From the NCBI GenBank assembly GCA_943788445.1, contig CALSQH010000005.1:3263-67262 (forward strand): a stretch of DNA of 64,000 nt, in the 5' to 3' direction. Shown here piece by piece: positions 3,118 through 64,000 of the stretch (position 1 is its first letter; each line of letters opens with the position of its first letter). The notes beneath the pieces are model-generated. The model made no database searches, was not told the origin of the DNA, and saw only the letters and a program-made list of their open reading frames with translations. A program made the translations under genes and the position numbers. Source of the DNA: an uncultured Pseudomonadales bacterium (lineage in GTDB: Bacteria; Pseudomonadota; Gammaproteobacteria; Pseudomonadales; Porticoccaceae).

Positions 3118-3711
3118 CTAGAGTGACTTCCTACTTTGTAAGGCCATATTTAAGGTTCCACCATCGACATATTCGAGCTCGCCCCCCATGGGAACACCGT
3201 AGGCAATTCGCGATACTGCAATGCCCATAGCCTTGGCTTTATCAGCAATAAAGTGGGCTGTAGCTTCGCCTTCCACGGTCAGGTTGGTGGCGAGAATTAA
3301 CTCGCTGACAAGACCCGTTTTTAAGCGATCGGTTAACTGATCTATACCCAATTGCTCGGGGCCAATACCGTCGATCGGCGACAGGTGTCCGAGCAAAACA
3401 AAATATTTACCGCGAAAACTTCCCGCCTGCTCAATAGCGTATAAATCCGCAGGATTCTCAACCACACAGATTTGTTCCGGCAGTCGACCCGCGTTGCTGC
3501 AAATAGCGCAGAGCTCATGCTCGGTTAATGTGCGGCATTCCCCGCAGCGTCCAACCTTGTCTACCGATTCTACAATCATTTCGGCGAGCCGAGAGGCTCC
3601 ACTGCGATCCCGCTCAAGCAGATGCAACGCCATACGCTGAGCCGATTTAGCACCGACACCGGGCAATACCCGCAGCGAGTCAATAAGTTGATCAATTAAA
3701 TTACCGTACAC
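3118..3711 (-). CDS. recR: Recombination protein RecR
   Basis: [11 protein letters not shown] HhH, CxxC zinc finger, Toprim [16 protein letters not shown]. Confidence 0.97.
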
Positions 3712-6052: not shown

Positions 6053-6215
6053 GCCCAAGAGTGGCGCTGCCCTGATTAAATCAATCCGACTCCGCTTATG
6101 GTTGCAGTGGTTTACAGATTGAGCGAACAACTGTCTAAGCGAAGCGAGTTTTGTGAGCGCTGTAAACCACTGCAACTATGGAGTCGATCTAATCAGGGCA
6201 GCGCCACTCTTGGGC
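6053..6215. repeat. Nested-hairpin element, copy 1
   Basis: 26-bp perfect outer inverted repeat (6053-6078 / 6190-6215), inner 6-bp and 20-bp stems, 42-nt conserved central loop. Confidence 0.9.
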
Positions 6216-6280: not shown

Positions 6281-6316
6281 GAGATTCCTCGTCGCTAAGC
6301 TCTGTCGGAATGACAG
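6281..6316. repeat. CGTC/GTCAT-type REP-like palindrome
   Basis: gagattcctcgtcgctaagctctgtcggaatgacag; near-identical units at 48933 and 50912. Confidence 0.8.
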
Positions 6317-6345: not shown

Positions 6346-6460
<115 letters not shown>

Positions 6461-17557: not shown

Positions 17558-17640
17558 TCTACTATCAGGGTCTTTAGTCTAGACTCGCTGTAAATACATC
17601 CCTGCCGCTCACGGTCTAGACTAAAGACCCTGACAGCAGA
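17558..17640. repeat. Long hairpin, 27-bp stem, 29-nt loop
   Basis: tctactatcagggtctttagtctagac / gtctagactaaagaccctgacagcaga around tcgctgtaaatacatccctgccgctcacg. Confidence 0.85.
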
Positions 17641-17682: not shown

Positions 17683-17843
17683 GAGTTAAAGCGTGGGGGC
17701 ACCTTGAAGATCAGTCAGGCTCCGCTTATGGTTTAGATATTTTCAGATTGAGCGAGCAACAGTTTGAGCAACGCGAGTTTTGCGAGCGCTGAAAATATCT
17801 AAACCATGGAGCCGATCTTCAAGGTGCCCCCACGCTTTGACTC
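17683..17843. repeat. Nested-hairpin element, copy 2
   Basis: 26-bp outer stem (one G-T pair), GATC junctions, GGCTCC/GGAGCC stem, 19-bp perfect inner stem, conserved central loop. Confidence 0.9.
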
Positions 17844-30837: not shown

Positions 30838-30920
30838 TTTTCTAAACTCTCTTAAATTTTAATTAATTCTTAGTCTTAGCCTTGACCGTTCTTCCGACCT
30901 GTCACTCGGTATCTCAGCGC

Positions 30921-31067
30921 AGCCATGGTGATCCTTTACGATCAATCAGGGCCCGCTTATGGGTTGAGCATTTTCAGGTTGAGTGAGCAACTGTTTGAGC
31001 GCAGCGAGTTTTGCGAACGCTGAAAATGCTCAACCCATGGGACCGATCGTAAAGGATCACCATGGCT
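30921..31067. repeat. Nested-hairpin element, copy 3
   Basis: 19-bp perfect outer stem, GATC junctions, 19-bp perfect inner stem, conserved central loop. Confidence 0.9.
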
Positions 31068-31103: not shown

Positions 31104-31129
31104 AGATACCAGCCTTCGCTGGCATGACG
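31104..31129. repeat. CGTC-type REP palindrome
   Basis: agataccagccttcgctggcatgacg; reverse strand CGTCATGCCAGC-GAAG-GCTGGTATCT. Confidence 0.8.
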
Positions 31130-31133
31130 ATAC

Positions 31134-31200
31134 AACGCTGAAAAGAACTACCCCATGGGACCGATCGTAAAGGGTTCCCATGACTGCGCCCACACCAAAC
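31134..31200. repeat. Orphan right half of a nested-hairpin element
   Basis: Colinear with about 31017-31082; differs mainly at variable stem positions. Confidence 0.8.
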
Positions 31201-31201
31201 C

Positions 31202-32283
31202 CTAAAGCGCCGCAACCACCGCATCACCCATCTCAACCGTACCAACCCGCGTCATACCATCCGTATAAATATCCCCAGTCCGCAACCCCTGATCCAGCAC
31301 ATCACTCACCGCCTTCTCAATCGCATCCGCCGCCTCAACCGCATCCAGCGAATAGCGCAACATCATCGCCACCGACAAAATAGTCGCCAATGGATTAGCC
31401 ACCCCCTGCCCCGCAATATCCGGCGCAGAACCATGACAGGGCTCATACATACCGCCACCATCCTTATCCAGAGACGCCGAAGGCAACATACCAATAGACC
31501 CCGTCAACATCGCCGCCGTATCCGACAGAATATCGCCAAACATATTGCCCGTCACAATCACATCAAACTGCTTAGGCGCCATCACCAACTGCATCGCCGC
31601 GTTATCCACATACATATGGCTCAGCTCCACCTCAGGGTAGTCCGCCGCCAACTCAGTGATAATCTCCTTCCAGAGTACGGTCGCCTCCAATACATTGGAC
31701 TTATCCACCGAACACAAACGCTTACCGCGAACCATCGCCGCCTCAAAGGCCATACGACCAATACGACGAATCTCAGACTCACTGTACTTATACGTGTTGT
31801 AACCCTCGCGCTCACCATTCTCAAGCGTACGAATACCCCGCGGCTCACCAAAGTAAATACCACCCACCAACTCGCGAACAATCAGAGATATCCAAACCAG
31901 AGACAAACTCAGGCTTTCAACGAAGAGGCATGAGCCAACTGCGGATACATAATCGCCGGACGCAAATTACCAAACAGATCCAACTCAGAACGGATAGTTA
32001 ACAACCCCTTCTCCGGACGCAGATGACGTTCAACATCATCCCACTGCGGGCCACCCACAGCACCCAACAAAATAGCATCGGAACTGCGCGCCTTATCCAA
32101 AGTCTCCTGAGGACAGGGCTCACCCACCGCATCCAGAGCCGCACCACCCAGATGGGCGTAATCCAACTCAATACCCAGACCATACTTATCACTAACCGTC
32201 TCAAGCACCTTAACCGCTTCAGTGACAATTTCCGGGCCAATATTGTCCCCGGGTAATACTAAAACCTTCTTCTTATCTGTCAT
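31202..32283 (-). CDS. leuB: 3-isopropylmalate dehydrogenase, frameshifted as sequenced (two extra bases near 31890-31915)
   Basis: [11 protein letters not shown]...NLRPA, then [39 protein letters not shown]. 1082 nt equals 360 codons plus 2. Confidence 0.95.
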
Positions 32284-48932: not shown

Positions 48933-48991
48933 AGATCCCTCGTCGCCTTGCTCTGTCGGGATGACAAAAATGAGGCTCTGGCGGGATGACA
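48933..48991. repeat. REP-like palindrome plus partial second unit
   Basis: agatccctcgtcgccttgctctgtcgggatgaca, then gctctggcgggatgaca. Confidence 0.8.
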
Positions 48992-50911: not shown

Positions 50912-50944
50912 AGGTCCCTCGTCGCTTTACTCTGTCGGGATGAT
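50912..50944. repeat. REP-like palindrome
   Basis: aggtccctcgtcgctttactctgtcgggatgat; same family as 6281 and 48933. Confidence 0.75.
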
Positions 50945-50974
50945 TCGGTGGGATAGCAATGGCTGGTCCTGCGG

Positions 50975-55621: not shown

Positions 55622-56203
55622 TTACATATATGCGTTACTGGTATCCGTATGGTCCGTCACATCACGCACACCCTTCAACTCGGGAATCTTTTCCATCAGG
55701 GTTTTCTCTACGCCCTCTTTCAAGGTTAAATCCACAGCCGAACAACCCTGACAACCACCACCAAACTCTAATACGGCAAAGCCATCAGCCATTTCTGCCA
55801 GTGACACTACACCGCCATGAGAGGCTAGGCCTGGATTAATTTCGTTATACAGCAGGTAGTTAACCCGATCTTCAATTGGGCTATCGTCACTAACATTAGG
55901 AAGTCTTGAGTTCGGTGCACGAATAGTTAACTGGCCGCCAAACTTATCTTCGGCAAAATCGACTTTGGCTTCATCAAGAAAGGGAATGCTGCGTTGTTCG
56001 AAGTAAGCATTGAAGGCGGCGTATTCAACCACGAGGTCTTCTTCGTTATGCTCGCCGGGACGGCTGTAGGCGATACAGGTTTCAGCTTTGGGTGTGCCGG
56101 GATCGGAGACGAACATACGAATGCCTATGCCTTCGCAATTTTGTTTTTCCAATAATCCAGCAAGATATTCCTGGGCTGATTCTGTAATCGTTACGTTGAG
56201 CAT
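55622..56203 (-). CDS. nfuA: Fe-S biogenesis protein NfuA
   Basis: [30 protein letters not shown]. Confidence 0.96.
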
Positions 56204-56409
56204 AGTTGAATCCTAAAAAACTAAATTTCAAAGACGGAATTGAAAAACCAATTCCTGAGTAAAAGACTAAGGTATTTTACGCTATTCTGGTGCCTTGGCA
56301 AAAGCCCCTTTTCACTTTTTAAAGGTCGCTTTTTAGATTTATTTTGGTATGATGCTCATCCATCAAAATATTTTGATACATCAGAAAAACTAGGGTACAG
56401 ACAACCATT

Positions 56410-59400
56410 ATGTCTCAGCAAGATAAAGCTCAAGATCTTAAACAGCGCATATTAGATGCTGCCCAACAGCGAATTCTAATTATAGATGGCGCTATGGGAA
56501 CTATGATTCAGCGCCATACACTTGAGGAAGAGCACTTTCGCGGTGAACGTTTTGCTGACTGGCACACCGACCTTAAGGGCAATAATGATCTTCTGAGCCT
56601 GACTCAGCCTGATATTATCTGTGATATCCACCGCGCCTATCTCGACGCGGGTGCCGACATTATTGAGACCAATACGTTTAACTCCACGACTATCTCGCAA
56701 GCTGATTATGAGATGCAGGCTATTTCGCGGGAGATCAATGTTGTCTCTGCACAGCTCGCGCGAAAAGCCGCCGATGAGTTTTCTACCCCTGAACGACCAC
56801 GCTTTGTTGCCGGTATTCTTGGGCCGACGAGTAGAACAGCGTCCCTATCACCGGATGTTAACGACCCCGGTGCGCGCAATGTCAGCTTTGATGAGTTGGT
56901 CGAGGCCTATGTGGAATCCACCGAAGCACTTATTGAAGGTGGTTCAGATGTGATTATGATCGAGACTATTTTCGATACCCTCAATGCTAAGGCTGCATTA
57001 TTTGCTGTCCAGCTGGTATTTGAAAAACAGGGCTATGAGCTACCGATTATGATCAGCGGCACCATCACTGATGCCAGCGGCAGAACTCTGTCAGGTCAAA
57101 CCCCTGAAGCATTCTGGAACTCTGTGCGACATAGCAAGCCGATTAGTGTTGGTCTTAACTGTGCGCTTGGACCCAAGGAGCTGCGCCCTCACCTGCTGGA
57201 AATCTCGTCCGTTTCCGATACTCTGGTCAGCTCGCACCCAAATGCCGGTCTGCCGAATGAATTCGGCGGCTATGATCTGGATGCCGATGCCATGGCCGAA
57301 ACTGTGGCGGAATTTGCCCGTTCTGGCCTGCTGAATATTGTCGGTGGCTGCTGTGGCACGACCCCGGAGCATATTCGCGTAATTGCCGATGCGGTGGCTG
57401 ATATAGCTCCGCGCAAAGTGCCTGAAATTGCACCTGCCTGTCGTCTGTCTGGTCTTGAGCCCTTCACCATCACTGCGGAATCACTGTTTGTGAATGTCGG
57501 TGAGCGCTGCAATGTTACGGGTTCTGCAGTGTTTAAGCGATTAATTCTGGAAGAGAACTACGACGCTGCATTGGAAGTTGCCCGCCAGCAGGTGATTAAT
57601 GGCGCGCAGATTATCGATGTAAACATGGACGAAGGCATGCTTGAGTCATTGCCTGCCATGGTCAAATTTTTAAACCTGATTGCCAGCGAGCCGGATATTT
57701 CTCGCGTGCCGATTATGGTCGATTCTTCAAAGTGGGATGTGATCGAGGCGGGTCTGAAATGTATTCAGGGTAAGTCTGTGGTCAACTCTATCAGCCTTAA
57801 AGAAGGTGAAGCGGAGTTTATCGAACGCGCCAAGCTGTGTAAAAAGCACGGTGCTGCGATTGTGGTTATGGCTTTTGATGAAAACGGTCAGGCGGATAAT
57901 TTAGAGCGTCGCAAACAGATCTGTCAGCGCAGCTACGATATGTTGGTCAACGAGATCGGTTTTCCTGCGGAAGATATTATTTTCGATCCCAATGTGTTCG
58001 CCGTAGCCACGGGTATTGAAGAGCACAATCGCTACGGTCTCGACTTTATTGAAGCCTGCCACTGGATTAAACAAAACCTACCCTATGCGCTTATTAGTGG
58101 CGGCATCTCCAATGTGTCATTCTCGTTCCGGGGCAATAACCCGGTGCGCGAAGCAATCCACTCGGTATTTCTCTTCCATGCGATCCGCGAGGGTTTGAGC
58201 ATGGGCATCGTCAATGCCGGTCAGTTGGCGGTCTATGACGACCTTCCCGAAGAGTTACGCAATATTGTTGAAGACGTGGTGCTGTTCCGCACCTCAGCAG
58301 GCACAGACAATCTGCTGGCGATTGCCGATAAATATCGCGGTGATGGTTCAACTCAAGCATCGGTTGAAGACTTGAGCTGGCGCGATGCCAATGTTAATCG
58401 TCGCCTTGAGCACAGTCTGGTAAAAGGCATTACCGCCTATATCGAGGAAGATACTGAAGAAGCCCGACAACAGGCTGATCGCCCGCTACATGTGATTGAA
58501 GGCGCGCTGATGGACGGTATGAATATTGTTGGCGACCTGTTTGGTTCCGGCAAGATGTTTTTGCCTCAGGTGGTTAAATCTGCCCGCGTAATGAAACAGG
58601 CCGTTGCCTATCTACAGCCCTATATTGAAGATGAAAAAGATCAAGCTGCCAGCACCAACGGCAAGATTCTGATGGCTACGGTTAAGGGCGATGTACACGA
58701 TATTGGCAAAAATATTGTTGGCGTGGTATTGCAGTGCAATAACTATGAGGTGATTGACCTCGGCGTGATGGTGTCGGCAGAAAAGATTCTGACCACGGCT
58801 CGCGAACAGAATGTCGATATTATTGGTCTCTCTGGCCTGATTACCCCATCGCTTGATGAGATGGTGACCTTGGGTAAAGAGATGCAGCGTCAGGGCTTTG
58901 ATGTGCCTCTATTGATTGGTGGCGCTACTACCTCGAAAGCACATACGGCGGTCAAGATTGCCCCAACCTATCAGCGTAACCAGACCATTTATGTGTCGGA
59001 TGCCTCCCGCGCTGTGGGTGTGGCCAGTAAGTTGATCAGCAAAGAGAAACGCGATGCCTTTATCGCCGAAATACAGCTGGATTACGATGCTGTAAGACTG
59101 CGTACGGCCAACAGAACCCCAAGGGGAACTCTGTACACCTACCCGGATGCGATCAAACAGAAGCCACAGATTAACTGGCGTGATTACCAGCCAACCCTGC
59201 CGGCAACATTGGGCGTGACAGTGCTTGATGATTACCCGCTGGAAGCATTGGTGCCCTATATTGATTGGACGCCATTCTTTATTACTTGGGATCTAGTGGG
59301 CAAGTACCCGAAGATATTCAATGATGAGGTTGTCGGTGAAGCAGCAACGACCCTTTTCGCCGATGCTCAGGCACTGCTCAAAGATATTATCGACAACAAG

Positions 59401-60105
59401 CGCCTTACTGCCCGTGCGGTTTTTGGGTTATGGCAAGCCAATACGGTTAACCACGACGATATCGAAGTCTACGCAGAGAGCGGCGAAACCCTTGCCACCC
59501 TGCACCATATTCGTCAGCAGATCCAAAAGCCTGGCGCCAGTGAGGAACTCACCTCTCTAGCCGATTTTGTCGCCCCAAAAGAATCAGATATCACTGACCA
59601 TATTGGCGCTTTTGCCGTATCAACAGGCATAGGGGCTGATGAACTAGCCGCCGAATATGAAGCTGTGCATGATGATTACAATGCGATTATGGTAAAGGCG
59701 CTGGCTGACCGTTTAGCAGAAGCCTTTACTGAGCACTTGCACGAACGTGTTCGCCGCGAGCACTGGGGTTATGCCGCTGATGAAGAACTCGACAATGAAG
59801 CTCTAATTAAAGAGAAATATCGTGGTATTCGGCCTGCACCGGGCTACCCGGCCTGCCCAGATCACACCGAGAAAGGCACCTTGTTTGAGCTGTTGAATGT
59901 CACGGAGAACATTGGTCTAGAGTTAACCGATAGCTTTGCGATGTCACCTGCTGCGGCAGTGAGCGGCTGGTACTTTGGCCACCCAGATGCCAAGTATATC
60001 AATACCGGAAAAATTGATGGCGATCAGGTGGAGTCACTGGCTCAACGTAAAGGCATGTCAGTGCCAGAACTTGAGCGTTGGTTGACGCCTATTCTGAATG
60101 ATTAA
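56410..60105 (+). CDS. metH: Cobalamin-dependent methionine synthase
   Basis: [37 protein letters not shown] (B12-binding), [10 protein letters not shown]. Confidence 0.98.
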
Positions 60106-60330
60106 TTGGGGCTAATTGTGATTGAAGAAAATAAATCCAAAAAACCCGGTTTAGGCTCGCTGATCAAAAGTATTTTGGCGGCGGCAATTGGCGTGCAGAG
60201 TAATAAAAATCGCGAGAGGGATTTTGAACATGGAAGTCCTCTGGCCTTTATTGTCGGCGGTTTTGTTTTTACTCTGCTGTTTATCGCGACCATTGCTACG
60301 GTTGTTGGAATTGTATTAAGTAATAACTGA
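60106..60330 (+). CDS. DUF2970-like small membrane protein
   Basis: SILAAAIGVQSNKNRERDFEHG. Confidence 0.85.
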   Translation: MGLIVIEENKSKKPGLGSLIKSILAAAIGVQSNKNRERDFEHGSPLAFIVGGFVFTLLFIATIATVVGIVLSNN

Positions 60331-60407
60331 CCGAGAAGCGGTCATCCTTAAAGAGCGACGCGAAGCATCTTTTTTAGATATCTCAGCTCACTCTACCACC
60401 TAAAATA

Positions 60408-60438
60408 AAAAAGAGGCTGCAGTTACGCAGCCCCTTTT
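60408..60438. terminator. Bidirectional terminator-like hairpin
   Basis: aaaagaggctgc-agttac-gcagcccctttt between converging genes. Confidence 0.6.
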
Positions 60439-60464
60439 AAACGTCCTAACCAAACAACTTCACC

Positions 60465-62834
60465 CTAAAACATATACCTAGCTTGCAGCGCAACATTCCT
60501 CGGACGATTAACAAACGCGTAATAGGAATTGCCCGCACCACCAGTCAATGTTCCGCCCAGCGGCGTATTACCACCAAAGTTAATCACTGTCTCATCGGTG
60601 AGGTTACGACCGATCAGTGCAAACTCCCAATCACCTTCGGCATTGGATAGGGCAACACGGGCATTAACCAAGGTGTAGGCTTCCTGTTCGGTGCGCGGAT
60701 CAAGGTTGGGGCTATAGATGTAATCACCCATATAATTCAAATCGATAGAAGCATCGAGAACCAGATTATCTGCAACAGTATCTGACCAAGCAGCGCCTAT
60801 ATTAGCTTGAAACTCAGGGGTGTACTCCTTGCGTTCACCGGCCACATCGCAGAGCCCGGGGAAGTCGGGTGCGTTTGGCACCTGACCAAAGTAACATTGA
60901 GAGTTGGGGAACTTGTCGTATTTAAAGTCCAGATAGGCTGCAGAACCCGTTAGCGTCAACTGATCAGTTGCCGCCCAACGGCCATCAACTTCAAAGCCCT
61001 GCACTGTTGCCTCTCCGGCGTTGGTTACGTTAAAGCCAAGAGTTCCATCAAACTGAGAGACTTGTAGATCGGTGTACTCAGTCATATAAAAAGCCATACT
61101 GAGTTCAGCCGCGCCATCCGCCAAGCTCATTTTAGACCCTAACTCAATACTGCTTGCCTCTTCGCGATCAAATTCCCAGCTACCGGTGATTGACGCACCA
61201 TTCAAGGGGTTTACAGCATTGACGACAGTTGCATCTGGATGACCATTTGAACGGGCATCAAAACCACCTGATTTATTACCCTTAGTCCAGGTCGCATAGG
61301 CCATGGCATCTTCACTGACATCCCATTCGAGAGTCACTACGGGTGTGAACGAGTCATCATCGATCTTTCCAGTGATTTTCTCGTAGGGCTCAATAGCAAA
61401 TATGCCATACAAAAGATTGTATGGATCAGTGGCTATTCCTGTGGGTAATGTTGCTCCCATAAAGGGTGATCCAACACTGGAGACATGCTGCTGAAGGCGA
61501 TCTGCATCTTTGTTTTCTTGGCTGTAACGACCACCGAAGGTTAGGCGCATATCATCGGCAATAGACCAGGTTGCCTGCGCAAATAGCGACCAGATATCAC
61601 CGTCTTGATTAAATTCACGATTGGTCGAAGAACCCGCTGCCAGAGGAGCCAGAGCACCTGCACCTGCACCAACCAAAGCTGCTGTGATCACTGTTGGGTC
61701 AGGCAGTATTATCTTATCGCTATACTCAAGCTCTGTTGACTGGAAAAAGATCCCCGCTATGTAGTCAACATCACCGCCAATATCTGAGGTTATGCGGAAT
61801 TCCTGACTGAACTGGCTGTATTCTTCTTCGCCAGTGGTGTCAAAAACAGCTGCCCCAGTAAAGTCGCAGTCACAGTTTTCCTGAAACTCATAATCAACAT
61901 AACCCGTGGTCGAGGTCAGAGTAAAACCCTCTAGGTCCCAACTGACACCCAGCGTTGTATTGTTGACTTCGTTGTTACTGTAATGACCATTGTTGTCGCC
62001 AATATAATTGAGCTCCGCATCGACTTGAAAGGCTTGAAGAGCATTCAACACGGTTATATGGTCTGGCGTACCAATACTGTTGTAGACCTCCAGGTTTCTG
62101 CCGACAACATCAAAGGTGGAGCGCGAAACTTTGAGATCAGCGGTCACATCGGCATTGATATCCCAGCGCAGCGACGCGCGGATAACATCTTCCGACTCCT
62201 GCTGCTCATCCTGACCGTTTACAGCATTCTTAACATAGCCATCCATATCACGAGTTAGCACTGCAAGCCGACCGCTTAGGTTGTCAGTTAGTGGCCCCGA
62301 TAGTACCAAGCGCAGGTCTTCTTCACCGTGATCAGGCTCGTACAGGGCGGTAATCGACCCCTCAAATTCATCCGTCGGTTTGGCAGTGATCTGGCTAACC
62401 GCACCGGCAATACTGTTTTTACCAAACAGAATACTCTGGGTGCCTCGCAATACTTCTACGCGCGCCATATCCATCATCGGAACGCGAGCCAGCTGACCTC
62501 GACCGTAAAATAGACCGTCGTTGTACATACCAACGGACTGCTCAAACCCAGGGTTAATGCCAGAGCTGATACCGCGAATAGTGATGGTGGTGGAAATACC
62601 GGTTTCATTGATTGAAAAGTTAGGTACATATTCAGATAGCCCTTGCAGGTCAACGACGCCTGCATCAGACATTTTCTCTGCGGTTACCGCTGCCACTGAG
62701 ACGGGTACATCCTGAAGTGATTCAGCACGCTGTTGCGCAGTGACAATAACTTCCTCGAGCACGGCGGAGTGGACAACCCCCACCGAGCTGGCAATAACTA
62801 TCGATAAAATTGATCTAGCTAAAAATTTTTTCAT
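60465..62834 (-). CDS. TonB-dependent receptor
   Basis: Signal peptide, EEVIVTAQQRAESLQDVPVSV, EVLRGTQSILFGKN, C-terminal RPRNVALQARYMF. Confidence 0.95.
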   Translation of the reverse strand: MKKFLARSILSIVIASSVGVVHSAVLEEVIVTAQQRAESLQDVPVSVAAVTAEKMSDAGVVDLQGLSEYVPNFSINETGISTTITIRGISSGINPGFEQSVGMYNDGLFYGRGQLARVPMMDMARVEVLRGTQSILFGKNSIAGAVSQITAKPTDEFEGSITALYEPDHGEEDLRLVLSGPLTDNLSGRLAVLTRDMDGYVKNAVNGQDEQQESEDVIRASLRWDINADVTADLKVSRSTFDVVGRNLEVYNSIGTPDHITVLNALQAFQVDAELNYIGDNNGHYSNNEVNNTTLGVSWDLEGFTLTSTTGYVDYEFQENCDCDFTGAAVFDTTGEEEYSQFSQEFRITSDIGGDVDYIAGIFFQSTELEYSDKIILPDPTVITAALVGAGAGALAPLAAGSSTNREFNQDGDIWSLFAQATWSIADDMRLTFGGRYSQENKDADRLQQHVSSVGSPFMGATLPTGIATDPYNLLYGIFAIEPYEKITGKIDDDSFTPVVTLEWDVSEDAMAYATWTKGNKSGGFDARSNGHPDATVVNAVNPLNGASITGSWEFDREEASSIELGSKMSLADGAAELSMAFYMTEYTDLQVSQFDGTLGFNVTNAGEATVQGFEVDGRWAATDQLTLTGSAAYLDFKYDKFPNSQCYFGQVPNAPDFPGLCDVAGERKEYTPEFQANIGAAWSDTVADNLVLDASIDLNYMGDYIYSPNLDPRTEQEAYTLVNARVALSNAEGDWEFALIGRNLTDETVINFGGNTPLGGTLTGGAGNSYYAFVNRPRNVALQARYMF

Positions 62835-63006
62835 TGTTACTTCTCCCCAAGTAATAGTTCACGGTTACCCGCTCTAATTATTAAGACGCACGACAAAAGT
62901 TATTCAGTGGTAATACAAATTAACCCACTACTTAAATATTAGCCGTGTTTTTAGGGGTTTTTATAATTTCTCGCAATTCACCTAGTGATTAACCTCACAA
63001 ATCCCG

Positions 63007-64000
63007 CTAGAGGGTTAAAAAGTCCTTCTCGTCAAGACTCTCCAAATAGCTTGAGCTGCCTGTAATAGTTGCCAAATGGGAATAATTGCGCGTTAGCAAC
63101 TGTGTCGCAAAGAATTGCGCTGTGGCAATTTTCTGAATATAAAATCTGTCCTCTGAGCCATGATCTACATGCTTTTGCGCGGCGATAGCCTGTTTGACCA
63201 TCAGCCAGTAAGCCACTGAATTGCCGAATAACATCATATGGCTATAGGCCAGATAGCCCGACTGGTCGGGATTAGCCAACACATAATCAAGCGCCTCTTG
63301 GCACTGGGTAATTGCGTATTCAAGGGAATTGAGCAATCCCTGTATTTGAGCAGAAGCATTGGCGAGCGAAGCGGTTTCCGTCATGTCGGCGATCAGTGCC
63401 GACAAACCCTCTCCGCCATCGCGAAGACATTTACGGCCGACAAAATCCAACGCCTGAATGCCATTGGTGCCTTCATAGATCGGCAGGATTCGTGCATCGC
63501 GCATATGCTGGGCAGCGCCGGTCTCTTCAATAAAGCCCATACCACCATGAACCTGAACCCCCAGCGAAGTCGATTCCATAGCAACTTCGGTGCACCAGCC
63601 TTTAACCAGTGGGGTCATTATTTCAACCCGTTTTGCGTTGGCGGCTCTGACGGTTTCGTCAGGGTGATGAGAACTGCGATCTTCCGCGGCAATAGCAAAA
63701 AATGACATGGCGCGACCGGCTTCGGTGAGCGCGCGCATGTGCATTAACATGCGTTTAACATCGGGGTGATGAATAATCGGCGCACGCCCTTCAATGCCCG
63801 AAACTCGACCCTGCACTCTGTCCTGAGCATAGGCGACCGCTTGCTGATAGGCGCGCTCACCAACGGCGACGCCCTGATGCCCTACAGATAACCTAGCGTT
63901 ATTCATCATTGTAAACATACATTGCAGGCCGCGATTTTCTTCTCCGACCAAATAACCAACCGCACCCCCATTATCGCCAAACTGCAGGGTACAGGTGGGG
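63007..64000 (-). CDS. Acyl-CoA dehydrogenase, C-terminal part (start lies beyond the window)
   Basis: PTCTLQFG...GYLVGEENRGL...MNNARL, QVHGGMGFIEE, IYEGTNGIQALD. Confidence 0.93.
   Translation of the reverse strand, partial: PTCTLQFGDNGGAVGYLVGEENRGLQCMFTMMNNARLSVGHQGVAVGERAYQQAVAYAQDRVQGRVSGIEGRAPIIHHPDVKRMLMHMRALTEAGRAMSFFAIAAEDRSSHHPDETVRAANAKRVEIMTPLVKGWCTEVAMESTSLGVQVHGGMGFIEETGAAQHMRDARILPIYEGTNGIQALDFVGRKCLRDGGEGLSALIADMTETASLANASAQIQGLLNSLEYAITQCQEALDYVLANPDQSGYLAYSHMMLFGNSVAYWLMVKQAIAAQKHVDHGSEDRFYIQKIATAQFFATQLLTRNYSHLATITGSSSYLESLDEKDFLTL

Follow-up and report, generated by a model that had tools for sequence, protein, structure and literature searches.

The window, the whole 64,000-nt stretch analysed here (positions 3,263–67,262 of the forward strand of contig CALSQH010000005.1; its genome, G000, is 96% complete), holds three copies of a long hairpin element. 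One separates ffs, the gene for the signal recognition particle (SRP) RNA, from dnaX, another lies between an ATP-binding cassette (ABC) ATPase gene and an enoyl-CoA hydratase gene, and the last sits between leuB and asd. Comparison with related genomes indicates that the element is an undescribed intergenic repeat family of about 165 nt in marine SAR92-clade bacteria, for which we found no name. The three copies are listed here with their bit scores.

6053..6215, + strand: copy 1, subfamily A, with outer ends AAGCCCAAG...CTTGGGC; it is bounded by the ffs 3′ end and the dnaX start, both genes being on the minus strand; 156 bits.
17683..17843, + strand: copy 2, subfamily B, outer ends GAGTTAAAGC...GCTTTGACTC, flanked by the ABC ATPase and enoyl-CoA hydratase genes; 182.7 bits.
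30905–30920: conserved leader of copy 3, CTCGGTATCTCAGCGC.
30921..31067, + strand: copy 3, subfamily C, with outer ends CAGCGCAGCCATGG...CCATGGCT; it is bounded by the leuB 3′ end and the asd start, both genes being on the minus strand; 160 bits.

A sequence-only reading of the window had described three nested hairpins that share one layout, and both inspection of the sequences and folding bear this out. From the outside inwards, the copies consist of an outer stem, a GATC pair (AATC in copy 1), the bulge ARTCA, a 6-bp stem, the bulge GCTT, an inner stem of 19–20 bp (ATGG...TTTYCAG) and a 42-nt apex, followed by the mirror arms. The parts of copy 2 illustrate the arrangement.

17683–17708 / 17818–17843: outer stem, 26 bp.
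17709–17712 / 17814–17817: GATC/GATC pair.
17713–17717: 5-nt bulge AGTCA on the 5′ side.
17718–17723 / 17808–17813: 6-bp stem GGCTCC/GGAGCC.
17724–17727: 4-nt bulge GCTT on the 5′ side.
17728–17746 / 17789–17807: inner stem, 19 bp.
17747–17788: structured 42-nt apex.

Each copy folds into a single rod of about 60 bp, with energies of −104.7, −104.1 and −86.5 kcal/mol for copies 1, 2 and 3, respectively, and z scores of −13.7, −15.2 and −12.7 against dinucleotide shuffles, none of 200 of which was as stable. The core pattern has three exact matches in the window against 0.00 expected. As first read, all three copies lie on the + strand despite flanking transcription in the −, + and − directions. 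The segment that had been called a 42-nt loop is present, but it is a structured extension of the rod and contains no such loop. The covariation seen there between ACAA/TTGT and GCAA/TTGC is real and belongs to a 4-bp helix that has at least ten Watson–Crick variants family-wide, and the GC-GNA-GC apex assigned to copies 1 and 3 reads GC-GAA-GC in the former and GC-GCA-GC in the latter.

The family extends beyond the window. In a first census, a loose core pattern picked out six copies in the genome of the window, and five of these were used to build a covariance model, which gave 17 matches in that genome and matches in 31 of the 79 genomes of the genus, with 1–20 per genome. An nhmmer search of the whole genome yielded two diverged copies and an orphan right half in addition to 14 full ones. 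When a 23-nt box of the element was compared with one genome per bacterial or archaeal species across the GTDB, 97 stretches were found, all but one in records of the SAR92 clade, HTCC2207, MOLA455, Porticoccaceae or metagenome-assembled genomes of uncultured Pseudomonadales. A narrower pattern had no match in 16 other families of the order. Viral contigs gave no match in two motif scans, and we therefore reject a phage origin. The only Rfam match at the gathering threshold is the SRP RNA at 6355–6451 on the minus strand, adjoining copy 1; in E-value mode, Rfam returned only generic microRNA models of long hairpins, the best of them MIR5635, whose 39.9 bits fall far short of its gathering score (149). 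Neither threshold mode points to a known Rfam RNA family, and a literature search on repeats or non-coding RNAs of SAR92 and HTCC2207 found nothing relevant. The initial failure to recognise a named family therefore stands: no match to a described one was found in Rfam or the literature, and further copies exist that covary in their stems.

For this last point we used a model-guided alignment of 98 distinct copies, with a refined apex structure. Standard pairs fill 93.9% of its cells, 49 of the 61 pairs show double-sided changes, and the covariation score is 0.558, whereas shuffles score 0.154 and slid partners no higher than 0.076; with the stored structure in place of the refined apex, 91.7% is paired and the score is 0.551. 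As the alignment was fitted to the model, these pairing counts lean towards the structure, but the size of the effect and the raw sequences leave no doubt about the strong covariation of the stems. Sequence itself is conserved at particular places: at the GATC pair (96–98 of the 98 rows), the bulges ARTCA and GCTT, the stem ends ATGG and TTTYCAG, and the apex. The outer part of the apex runs from CAG through a 4-nt 5′ bulge, an A.G pair, a G-C pair and a position N:N′ (C:G, T:A or A.A) to a tandem G.A motif. Its inner part comprises the 4-bp helix, CTGTYT on the 5′ side opposite GTT on the 3′ side, a second tandem G.A motif, a 2-bp helix and a G-N(1–2)-A loop. Variants of the 4-bp helix include GCAA/TTGC, ACAA/TTGT, GCAC/GTGC, GCGC/GCGC, AGAC/GTCT, AGAT/ATCT, GCTC/GAGC and ATGC/GCAT. 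The apical loop is in many cases of the GYYA or GNA type and not GNRA, and in some copies a longer hairpin takes the place of the apical loop.

Wherever the rod is internally asymmetric, the extra bases lie on the 5′ arm, and three such 5′-side bulges are conserved. Two patches of 7–11 bp, one in the middle of the outer stem and one in the middle of the inner stem, are hypervariable and are free to change provided that pairing is kept. Copies 2 and 5 of this genome, for example, differ at 6 of 11 patch positions in each arm, with every change matched, and are about 96% identical in the remainder. We found no matches of the variable arms elsewhere in the genome beyond chance 14–15-mers, and reject a role for them as guides. 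The hairpin is flanked by a conserved unpaired leader of about 20 nt and by a C/A-rich trailer, giving a whole unit of about 230 nt; leader and trailer are common to the subfamilies, of which the outer ends define at least four.

The two strands of the element are not equivalent. When each 5′ arm was aligned with the reverse complement of its own 3′ arm, transitions between the arms were of the G.T type 219 times and of the A.C type 92 times (p ~4e-13; 67 elements versus 16). The + strand is also the more stable in 93 of 106 trimmed copies with RNA parameters (−93.8 versus −85.6 kcal/mol) and in 100 of the 106 with DNA parameters, and its tandem G.A motifs become U.C on the opposite strand. 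The copies are related, such that p-values for this bias overstate independence, but its direction is consistent across subfamilies. Judged from these sequence asymmetries, the + strand is the strand selected to fold.

Placement relative to genes is similarly one-sided. All copies in the window's genome are intergenic, and across the 74 copies with callable neighbours the gene on the 3′ side of the element points at it in 66. By context, the 74 copies divide into 35 convergent, 31 tandem antisense, 6 divergent and 2 tandem sense cases; when orthologous loci are collapsed, 32 of 40 follow the rule (20, 12, 5 and 3 in the same order; p ~2e-4). In the cases that follow the rule, the folding strand runs antisense to the abutting gene, the one that ends next to the element. 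The stop codon of that gene is often only 4–60 nt from the hairpin base, so the upstream mRNA must carry the reverse complement of the folding strand. Neither a sigma70-like promoter nor an intrinsic terminator was called at the three window copies. A GATAGT/GATAAT hexamer, often with TGn ahead of it, is found in the leader of subfamily D alone, where some 7 nt separate it from the first paired base; there is no promoter motif common to the subfamilies, and the −10-like hexamer is missing from A, B and C.

Related species show how the copies come and go. The element between ffs and dnaX is kept in six species (this genome and five others), among which dnaX is about 80% identical and the surrounding intergenic DNA cannot be aligned. 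Along this series the arms differ by matched changes, and G079 has a wholly different outer arm with a similar inner module. At the site of copy 2 the element is missing from the closest relatives (79% protein identity), where other repeats are found together with no more than a 3′ remnant, and G056 has a copy in the opposite orientation. At the leuB–asd site the element is present in this genome and in G023; in G059, the flanks of which are 95–98% identical to those of G023, it is reduced to GCGAAGCCATGGCTTCGC, the product to be expected from slippage between the arms' two copies of CCATGG, and in G024 REP2 arrays (described below) stand in its place. Relatives without the element at these two loci therefore keep a remnant or the collapse product GCGAAGCCATGGCTTCGC in one case and carry different repeats in the others. 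Within a genome, identity between copies has a median of about 0.65, and pairs at distant loci reach 0.96 (G079) and 0.92 (G001), which indicates fairly recent copying or conversion. Taken together, copies appear, duplicate, collapse and disappear within the time that species take to diverge, yet some persist at one locus across species. We also considered nested insertion into palindromes centred on GATC or CCATGG and rejected it, as no empty outer palindromes were found in the genome or at about 180 loci; short palindromes are not a target class because no family of them exists.

Another palindrome had been reported beside each window copy, and all were confirmed, although they are of different kinds.

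6283..6315, + strand: REP2 unit GATTCCTCGTCGCTAAGCTCTGTCGGAATGACA, which shares the strand of copy 1 and follows 67 nt downstream.
17558..17640, no strand assigned: hairpin with a 27-bp stem beside copy 2, single-copy (blastn finds only itself) and outside the family.
31106–31125: small hairpin near copy 3.
~31130..31192, + strand: orphan right half of a second element near copy 3, from ...AACGCTGAAAAG through CCATGGGACCGATCGTAAAGGGTTCCCATGAC, a partial nhmmer match to model positions 104–155.

REP2 is a 33-nt repeat, GATCCCTCGTCGCTnnGCTCTGTCGGGATGACA, with about 40 copies in this genome, including those at 6283–6315, 48934–48966 and 50913–50945 of the window. It lies 26–34 nt downstream of the hairpin and on the same strand at 6 of 16 hairpins in this genome, the unit of copy 1 being further out, and hairpin and REP2 also form tandem arrays of leader, hairpin, trailer and REP2 with periods of 256 and 315 nt. 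Away from hairpins, REP2 is antisense to the upstream gene in 25 of 29 cases. Both repeats occur in 26 of the 79 genomes, the hairpin only in 5, REP2 only in 1 and neither in 47, a co-occurrence that may come partly from shared ancestry. A full element with the outer arms of the orphan half is present at the same leuB site in other species (L126, and L041 in G051). The single-copy hairpin at 17558–17640 follows closely on the ABC-transporter ATPase gene, for which it may serve as the terminator. We further observed a 52-nt insert of two small hairpins in the 3′ arm of the element at the leuB site in G002 and G042 (L126:3617–3668 and L127), placed between CCATGGG and CCGATC of an otherwise complete element and common to the two species. 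At the copy-2 site of G059 and G086 (L168 and L170, ~1100–1400) there are tandem units of about 22 nt resembling GGTGGGTAAGCTCAAACGATA, together with REP2-type units.

Several known systems resemble the element in part. REPINs are doublets of repetitive extragenic palindromic (REP) units that form hairpins and go with REP-associated tyrosine transposases (RAYTs), as described in Pseudomonas fluorescens SBW25 (PMC3116915). Like them, the element is an extragenic hairpin repeat of about 100–200 nt with conserved boxes, a variable paired region and compensatory changes; it persists vertically in its lineage, occurs as singlets, tandem clusters and decayed halves, and is putatively read as folded single-stranded DNA (ssDNA). 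Unlike in REPINs, its arms are not short REP palindromes, conservation lies in the bulges and apex and not at the two ends, there are 1–20 copies and not hundreds, and most carriers have no RAYT.

The ERIC, YPAL and Correia-type palindromic miniature inverted-repeat transposable elements (MITEs) of Enterobacteria, Yersinia and Neisseria are imperfect palindromes of 120–170 bp. The element shares with these an intergenic location in transcribed 3′ flanks, low to moderate copy numbers, an orientation-dependent context and conservation of structure above sequence. It differs in host clade and probably in sequence, and the resemblance to ERIC is in kind only; it has no terminal inverted repeat common to the subfamilies and shows no target duplication, and it is a near-perfect rod of about 60 bp with three one-sided bulges and a structured apex, the selected strand of which is antisense to mRNA. 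Derivation as a MITE from a DDE transposase is not supported: the ends of the resident IS3 and IS256 insertion sequences (ISs) are unrelated to the element, and there is no target-site duplication. The bacterial interspersed mosaic elements (BIMEs) of E. coli likewise combine two repeat units at fixed spacing or in arrays, as the hairpin and REP2 do here, and are found downstream of genes and rarely in divergent promoter regions; one unit of the present element is a 165-nt rod compared with a 35-nt REP, and binding of gyrase, IHF and Pol I is a feature of BIMEs, whereas the element is known here from sequence alone.

On these grounds we favour, with moderate confidence and for class and mechanism jointly, a repeat of the REP/REPIN/ERIC class that is read as a folded single strand, most likely of DNA. 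The class is proposed because the element is multi-copy, forms subfamilies and arrays, leaves halves and collapse products, has a patchy, clade-bound range and prefers 3′ flanks. In the proposed mechanism, the molecule read would be the folded + strand as ssDNA, and its conserved bulges and apex would be the features recognised by a structure-specific protein that binds or cuts DNA, by analogy with RAYTs on REP hairpins and integron integrase (IntI) on the bottom strands of attC sites. The sequence-only reading had likewise suggested recognition as folded ssDNA, with which the strand-specific fold is compatible. Pairing of the arms may be kept by selection on the fold, aided by template-switch correction of quasi-palindromes templated by the hairpin, in which a change in one arm would become a matched change in the other. 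Homogenisation of the arms by strand switching, also raised earlier, is a plausible contributor. Quasi-palindrome template switching is established in E. coli and can yield compensated arm changes without selection. Compensatory changes on both sides of the hairpin are common in REPINs as well (PMC3116915). For these two reasons, covariation alone is no argument for RNA. The sequence conservation of bulges and apex and the strand asymmetry do need selection.

A number of observations weigh against this favoured explanation. No gene for a Y1 transposase (Y1_Tnp, PF01797) was matched in this genome in spite of its 17 element copies; across the genus such genes occur in 11 of 79 genomes, 8 of them carriers of the element, and 23 of the 31 carriers lack them. 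In G024, the RAYT gene stands between other inverted repeats (TAAACCGGGGTCAGATGAAGG...), which are neither the hairpin nor REP2. The linked HUH/Y1 enzyme that had been suggested is therefore not supported. The resident ISs were rejected as mobilisers, as the ends of the IS3- and IS256-family elements are unrelated to the element. This genome has an intact integron integrase gene, intI, at G000:C4:29062–30030 (TIGR02249, 439 bits against a cut-off of 265), but the attC sites beside it differ from the element, and intI is intact in only 2 of the 79 genomes, with fragments in several more, whereas 31 carry the element. The copy number is low for a REP family, and neither a clean empty site nor a target-site duplication was seen at the compared loci, nor any target duplication at the limits of conservation. 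Long-term retention between ffs and dnaX suggests a host-level role that lies outside the explanation. In two closed genomes, with dnaA as a proxy for the origin, the folding strand is held by the leading-strand template in 21 of 29 copies and by the lagging-strand template in 8; ssDNA elements of the IS200/IS605 type do not act on the leading-strand template. A bias towards the lagging-strand template, as in IS200/IS605-type elements (PATEs), is thus not seen. By GC skew, the folding strand in this genome is on the leading-strand template in 9 copies and the lagging in 7 (n=16), and the mild leading-template bias is what the gene-orientation rule alone would give.

The mobile elements encountered in these searches are recorded here in their own right. 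In G024, the RAYT-like Y1 gene lies between inverted copies of a third repeat, TAAACCGGGGTCAGATGAAGGTTTT (L161:1124–1174 and 1955–1985), which is probably a REP family of its own. The IS3-family element (orfA/orfB, rve domain) has at least four copies that are 99.7–100% identical to one another; the one on C13 is 153 nt from a hairpin and the other IS copies have no hairpin nearby. The integron (G000:C4:29062–33600) is outside the window and has a short cassette array with ordinary attC sites (TAACAA...GCGTTA).

G000:C13:46972–48249, C1:187086–188362, C1:189371–190633 and C10:6453–7729: IS3-family copies.
C2:33695–35000 and C3:875319–876626: IS256-family element.

Four rival explanations were weighed against the folded ssDNA, which we rank first because the favoured strand is antisense to the abutting gene, has no shared promoter and is rarest where read-through would be possible; an RNA of the + strand, a hairpin in the sense of the mRNA, a duplex or cruciform site and an attC-like site follow in that order. 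The + strand could possibly, though we doubt it, encode a structured RNA family, as an independent small RNA or as a product of convergent or divergent read-through. Such an RNA would act in trans, or as cis-antisense to the 3′ untranslated region of the abutting gene, and the bulges and apex would be its protein- or RNA-binding sites. The fold is strand-specific and tolerates G.U pairs, it contains tandem G.A motifs, and its strong covariation includes both the 4-bp apex helix and the 2-bp apical helix. The subfamily D hexamer, often with TGn, is about 7 nt ahead of the pairing, the C/A-rich, G-poor trailer resembles a Rho-loading tract, and the position of about half of the copies between convergent genes means that the left gene could read through in the + sense. 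Against this, no promoter-like site is found at the window copies and the hexamer is confined to one subfamily; sense placement is the rarest (2 of 74), and in 31 of 74 copies the left neighbour points away, leaving no obvious + transcription. For a regulatory RNA of bacteria, an almost perfect 60-bp duplex (length approximate) is unusual, GYYA and GNA are frequent among the apical loops in place of GNRA, there is no Rfam match, and copy number and presence vary as in repeats, not regulators. For the structured RNA family offered in the sequence-only reading, the strong covariation holds, whereas an ordinary non-coding RNA gene is disfavoured by the absence of promoter- and terminator-like sites at the window copies, by the lack of a promoter motif common to the subfamilies and by the antisense placement. 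A second explanation places the working form on the other strand, as a hairpin at the 3′ end of the upstream mRNA that serves as a terminator, attenuator or exonuclease barrier of the REP/ERIC type; its orientation rule would come from a short U-run that this orientation alone places after the stem, and the + strand bias would be a by-product. The mRNA does run into the element, given a stop codon often 4–60 nt away; the rule holds in 66 of 74 copies and similarly for REP2 (25 of 29), TTT(T/G) follows the stem in the mRNA sense in subfamilies A and C, and minus-strand RNA is still very stable (mean −85.6 kcal/mol). We nevertheless regard it as unlikely, because selection favours the other strand (in the mRNA sense, A.C versus G.U mismatches number 219 versus 92, and G.A becomes U.C). 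Mutation biases linked to transcription or replication would, moreover, push in the opposite direction. A generic barrier leaves the conserved bulge and apex sequences unexplained, the U-runs are short with no terminator-like site called, and the element is dispensable at leuB–asd in close relatives.

The two remaining rivals concern double-stranded DNA and integrons. A duplex or cruciform site for gyrase, an IHF-like protein or another nucleoid protein, positioned where positive supercoils gather downstream of genes, would fit the 3′-flank placement, above all where the neighbouring genes converge (35 of 74 copies and 20 of 40 loci), the mosaic and tandem arrays with REP2, and the invariant GATC pair with three conserved boxes, and a similar supercoil-linked role has been proposed for the BIMEs of E. 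coli. Such a site has no reason to show wobble-pair strand asymmetry or strand-specific stability, and 0–20 copies per genome are few and patchy for a structural role, which makes this explanation improbable. Least probable by our reckoning, and only barely conceivable, is an attC-like site used by the genome's own integrase. The geometry is the same: the element lies just 3′ of a gene, the template (bottom) strand folds, extrahelical bases are one-sided, the stems vary with structure conserved above their sequence, the folding strand is mostly on the leading-strand template, and an intact intI is present. The likeness is a functional analogy only. The cassettes of the integron carry unrelated, ordinary attC sites, the element has no RYYYAAC/GTTRRRY (R and L) boxes in attC order, its apex is conserved where attC has a variable terminal structure, and it is dispersed singly beside housekeeping genes, not in cassette arrays. 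It also does not track IntI, which is intact in 2 of 79 genomes against 31 carriers. The unrelated true attC sites and this distribution largely refute identity with attC.

We put forward, as a speculative and rather unlikely extension, that the hairpins are sites of a novel structure-specific DNA (or RNA) enzyme system of SAR92 bacteria. The putative system would read a template-strand fold 3′ of genes through the three one-sided bulges and the G.A-rich apex; it would be attC- or REPIN-like but work without an HUH, RAYT or integrase partner, and the hypervariable patches of the stems could owe their paired sequences to the copying mechanism itself.

Two further features of the window are noted separately. 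The leuB gene (31202–32283, minus strand) is split into two open reading frames by an in-frame TGA at 31909–31911 (...AAA GCC TGA GTT TGT...), with positions 1–116 of the Pfam domain Iso_dh before the TGA and 126–348 after it; candidate explanations are a sequencing error, a pseudogene and a site of read-through. The terminal 10.85 kb of contig C5 (G000:C5:58952–69803; window positions 55690–64000) is 99.96% identical, in reverse, to the end of C10 (20489–31340); either the assembly overlaps here or a large segment has recently been duplicated.

Repeats are scarce in SAR92 bacteria, a group of abundant and streamlined heterotrophs of the sea, and a conserved 165-nt rod retained across species is conspicuous among them for that reason. 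The family offers a clean case from nature of a conserved structure with a free stem sequence, and its copies, about 100 of them and divergent, its series of orthologues and its products of decay make it useful for separating selection on pairing from the self-correction of palindromes by template switching. The real puzzle is that the strand selected to fold is neither the strand that is transcribed nor the one exposed at the replication fork. Its solution could bring to light a new protein that partners folded single strands, or a functional RNA made by antisense or divergent transcription; if neither holds, the family would be a new REP-like repeat useful for strain typing.

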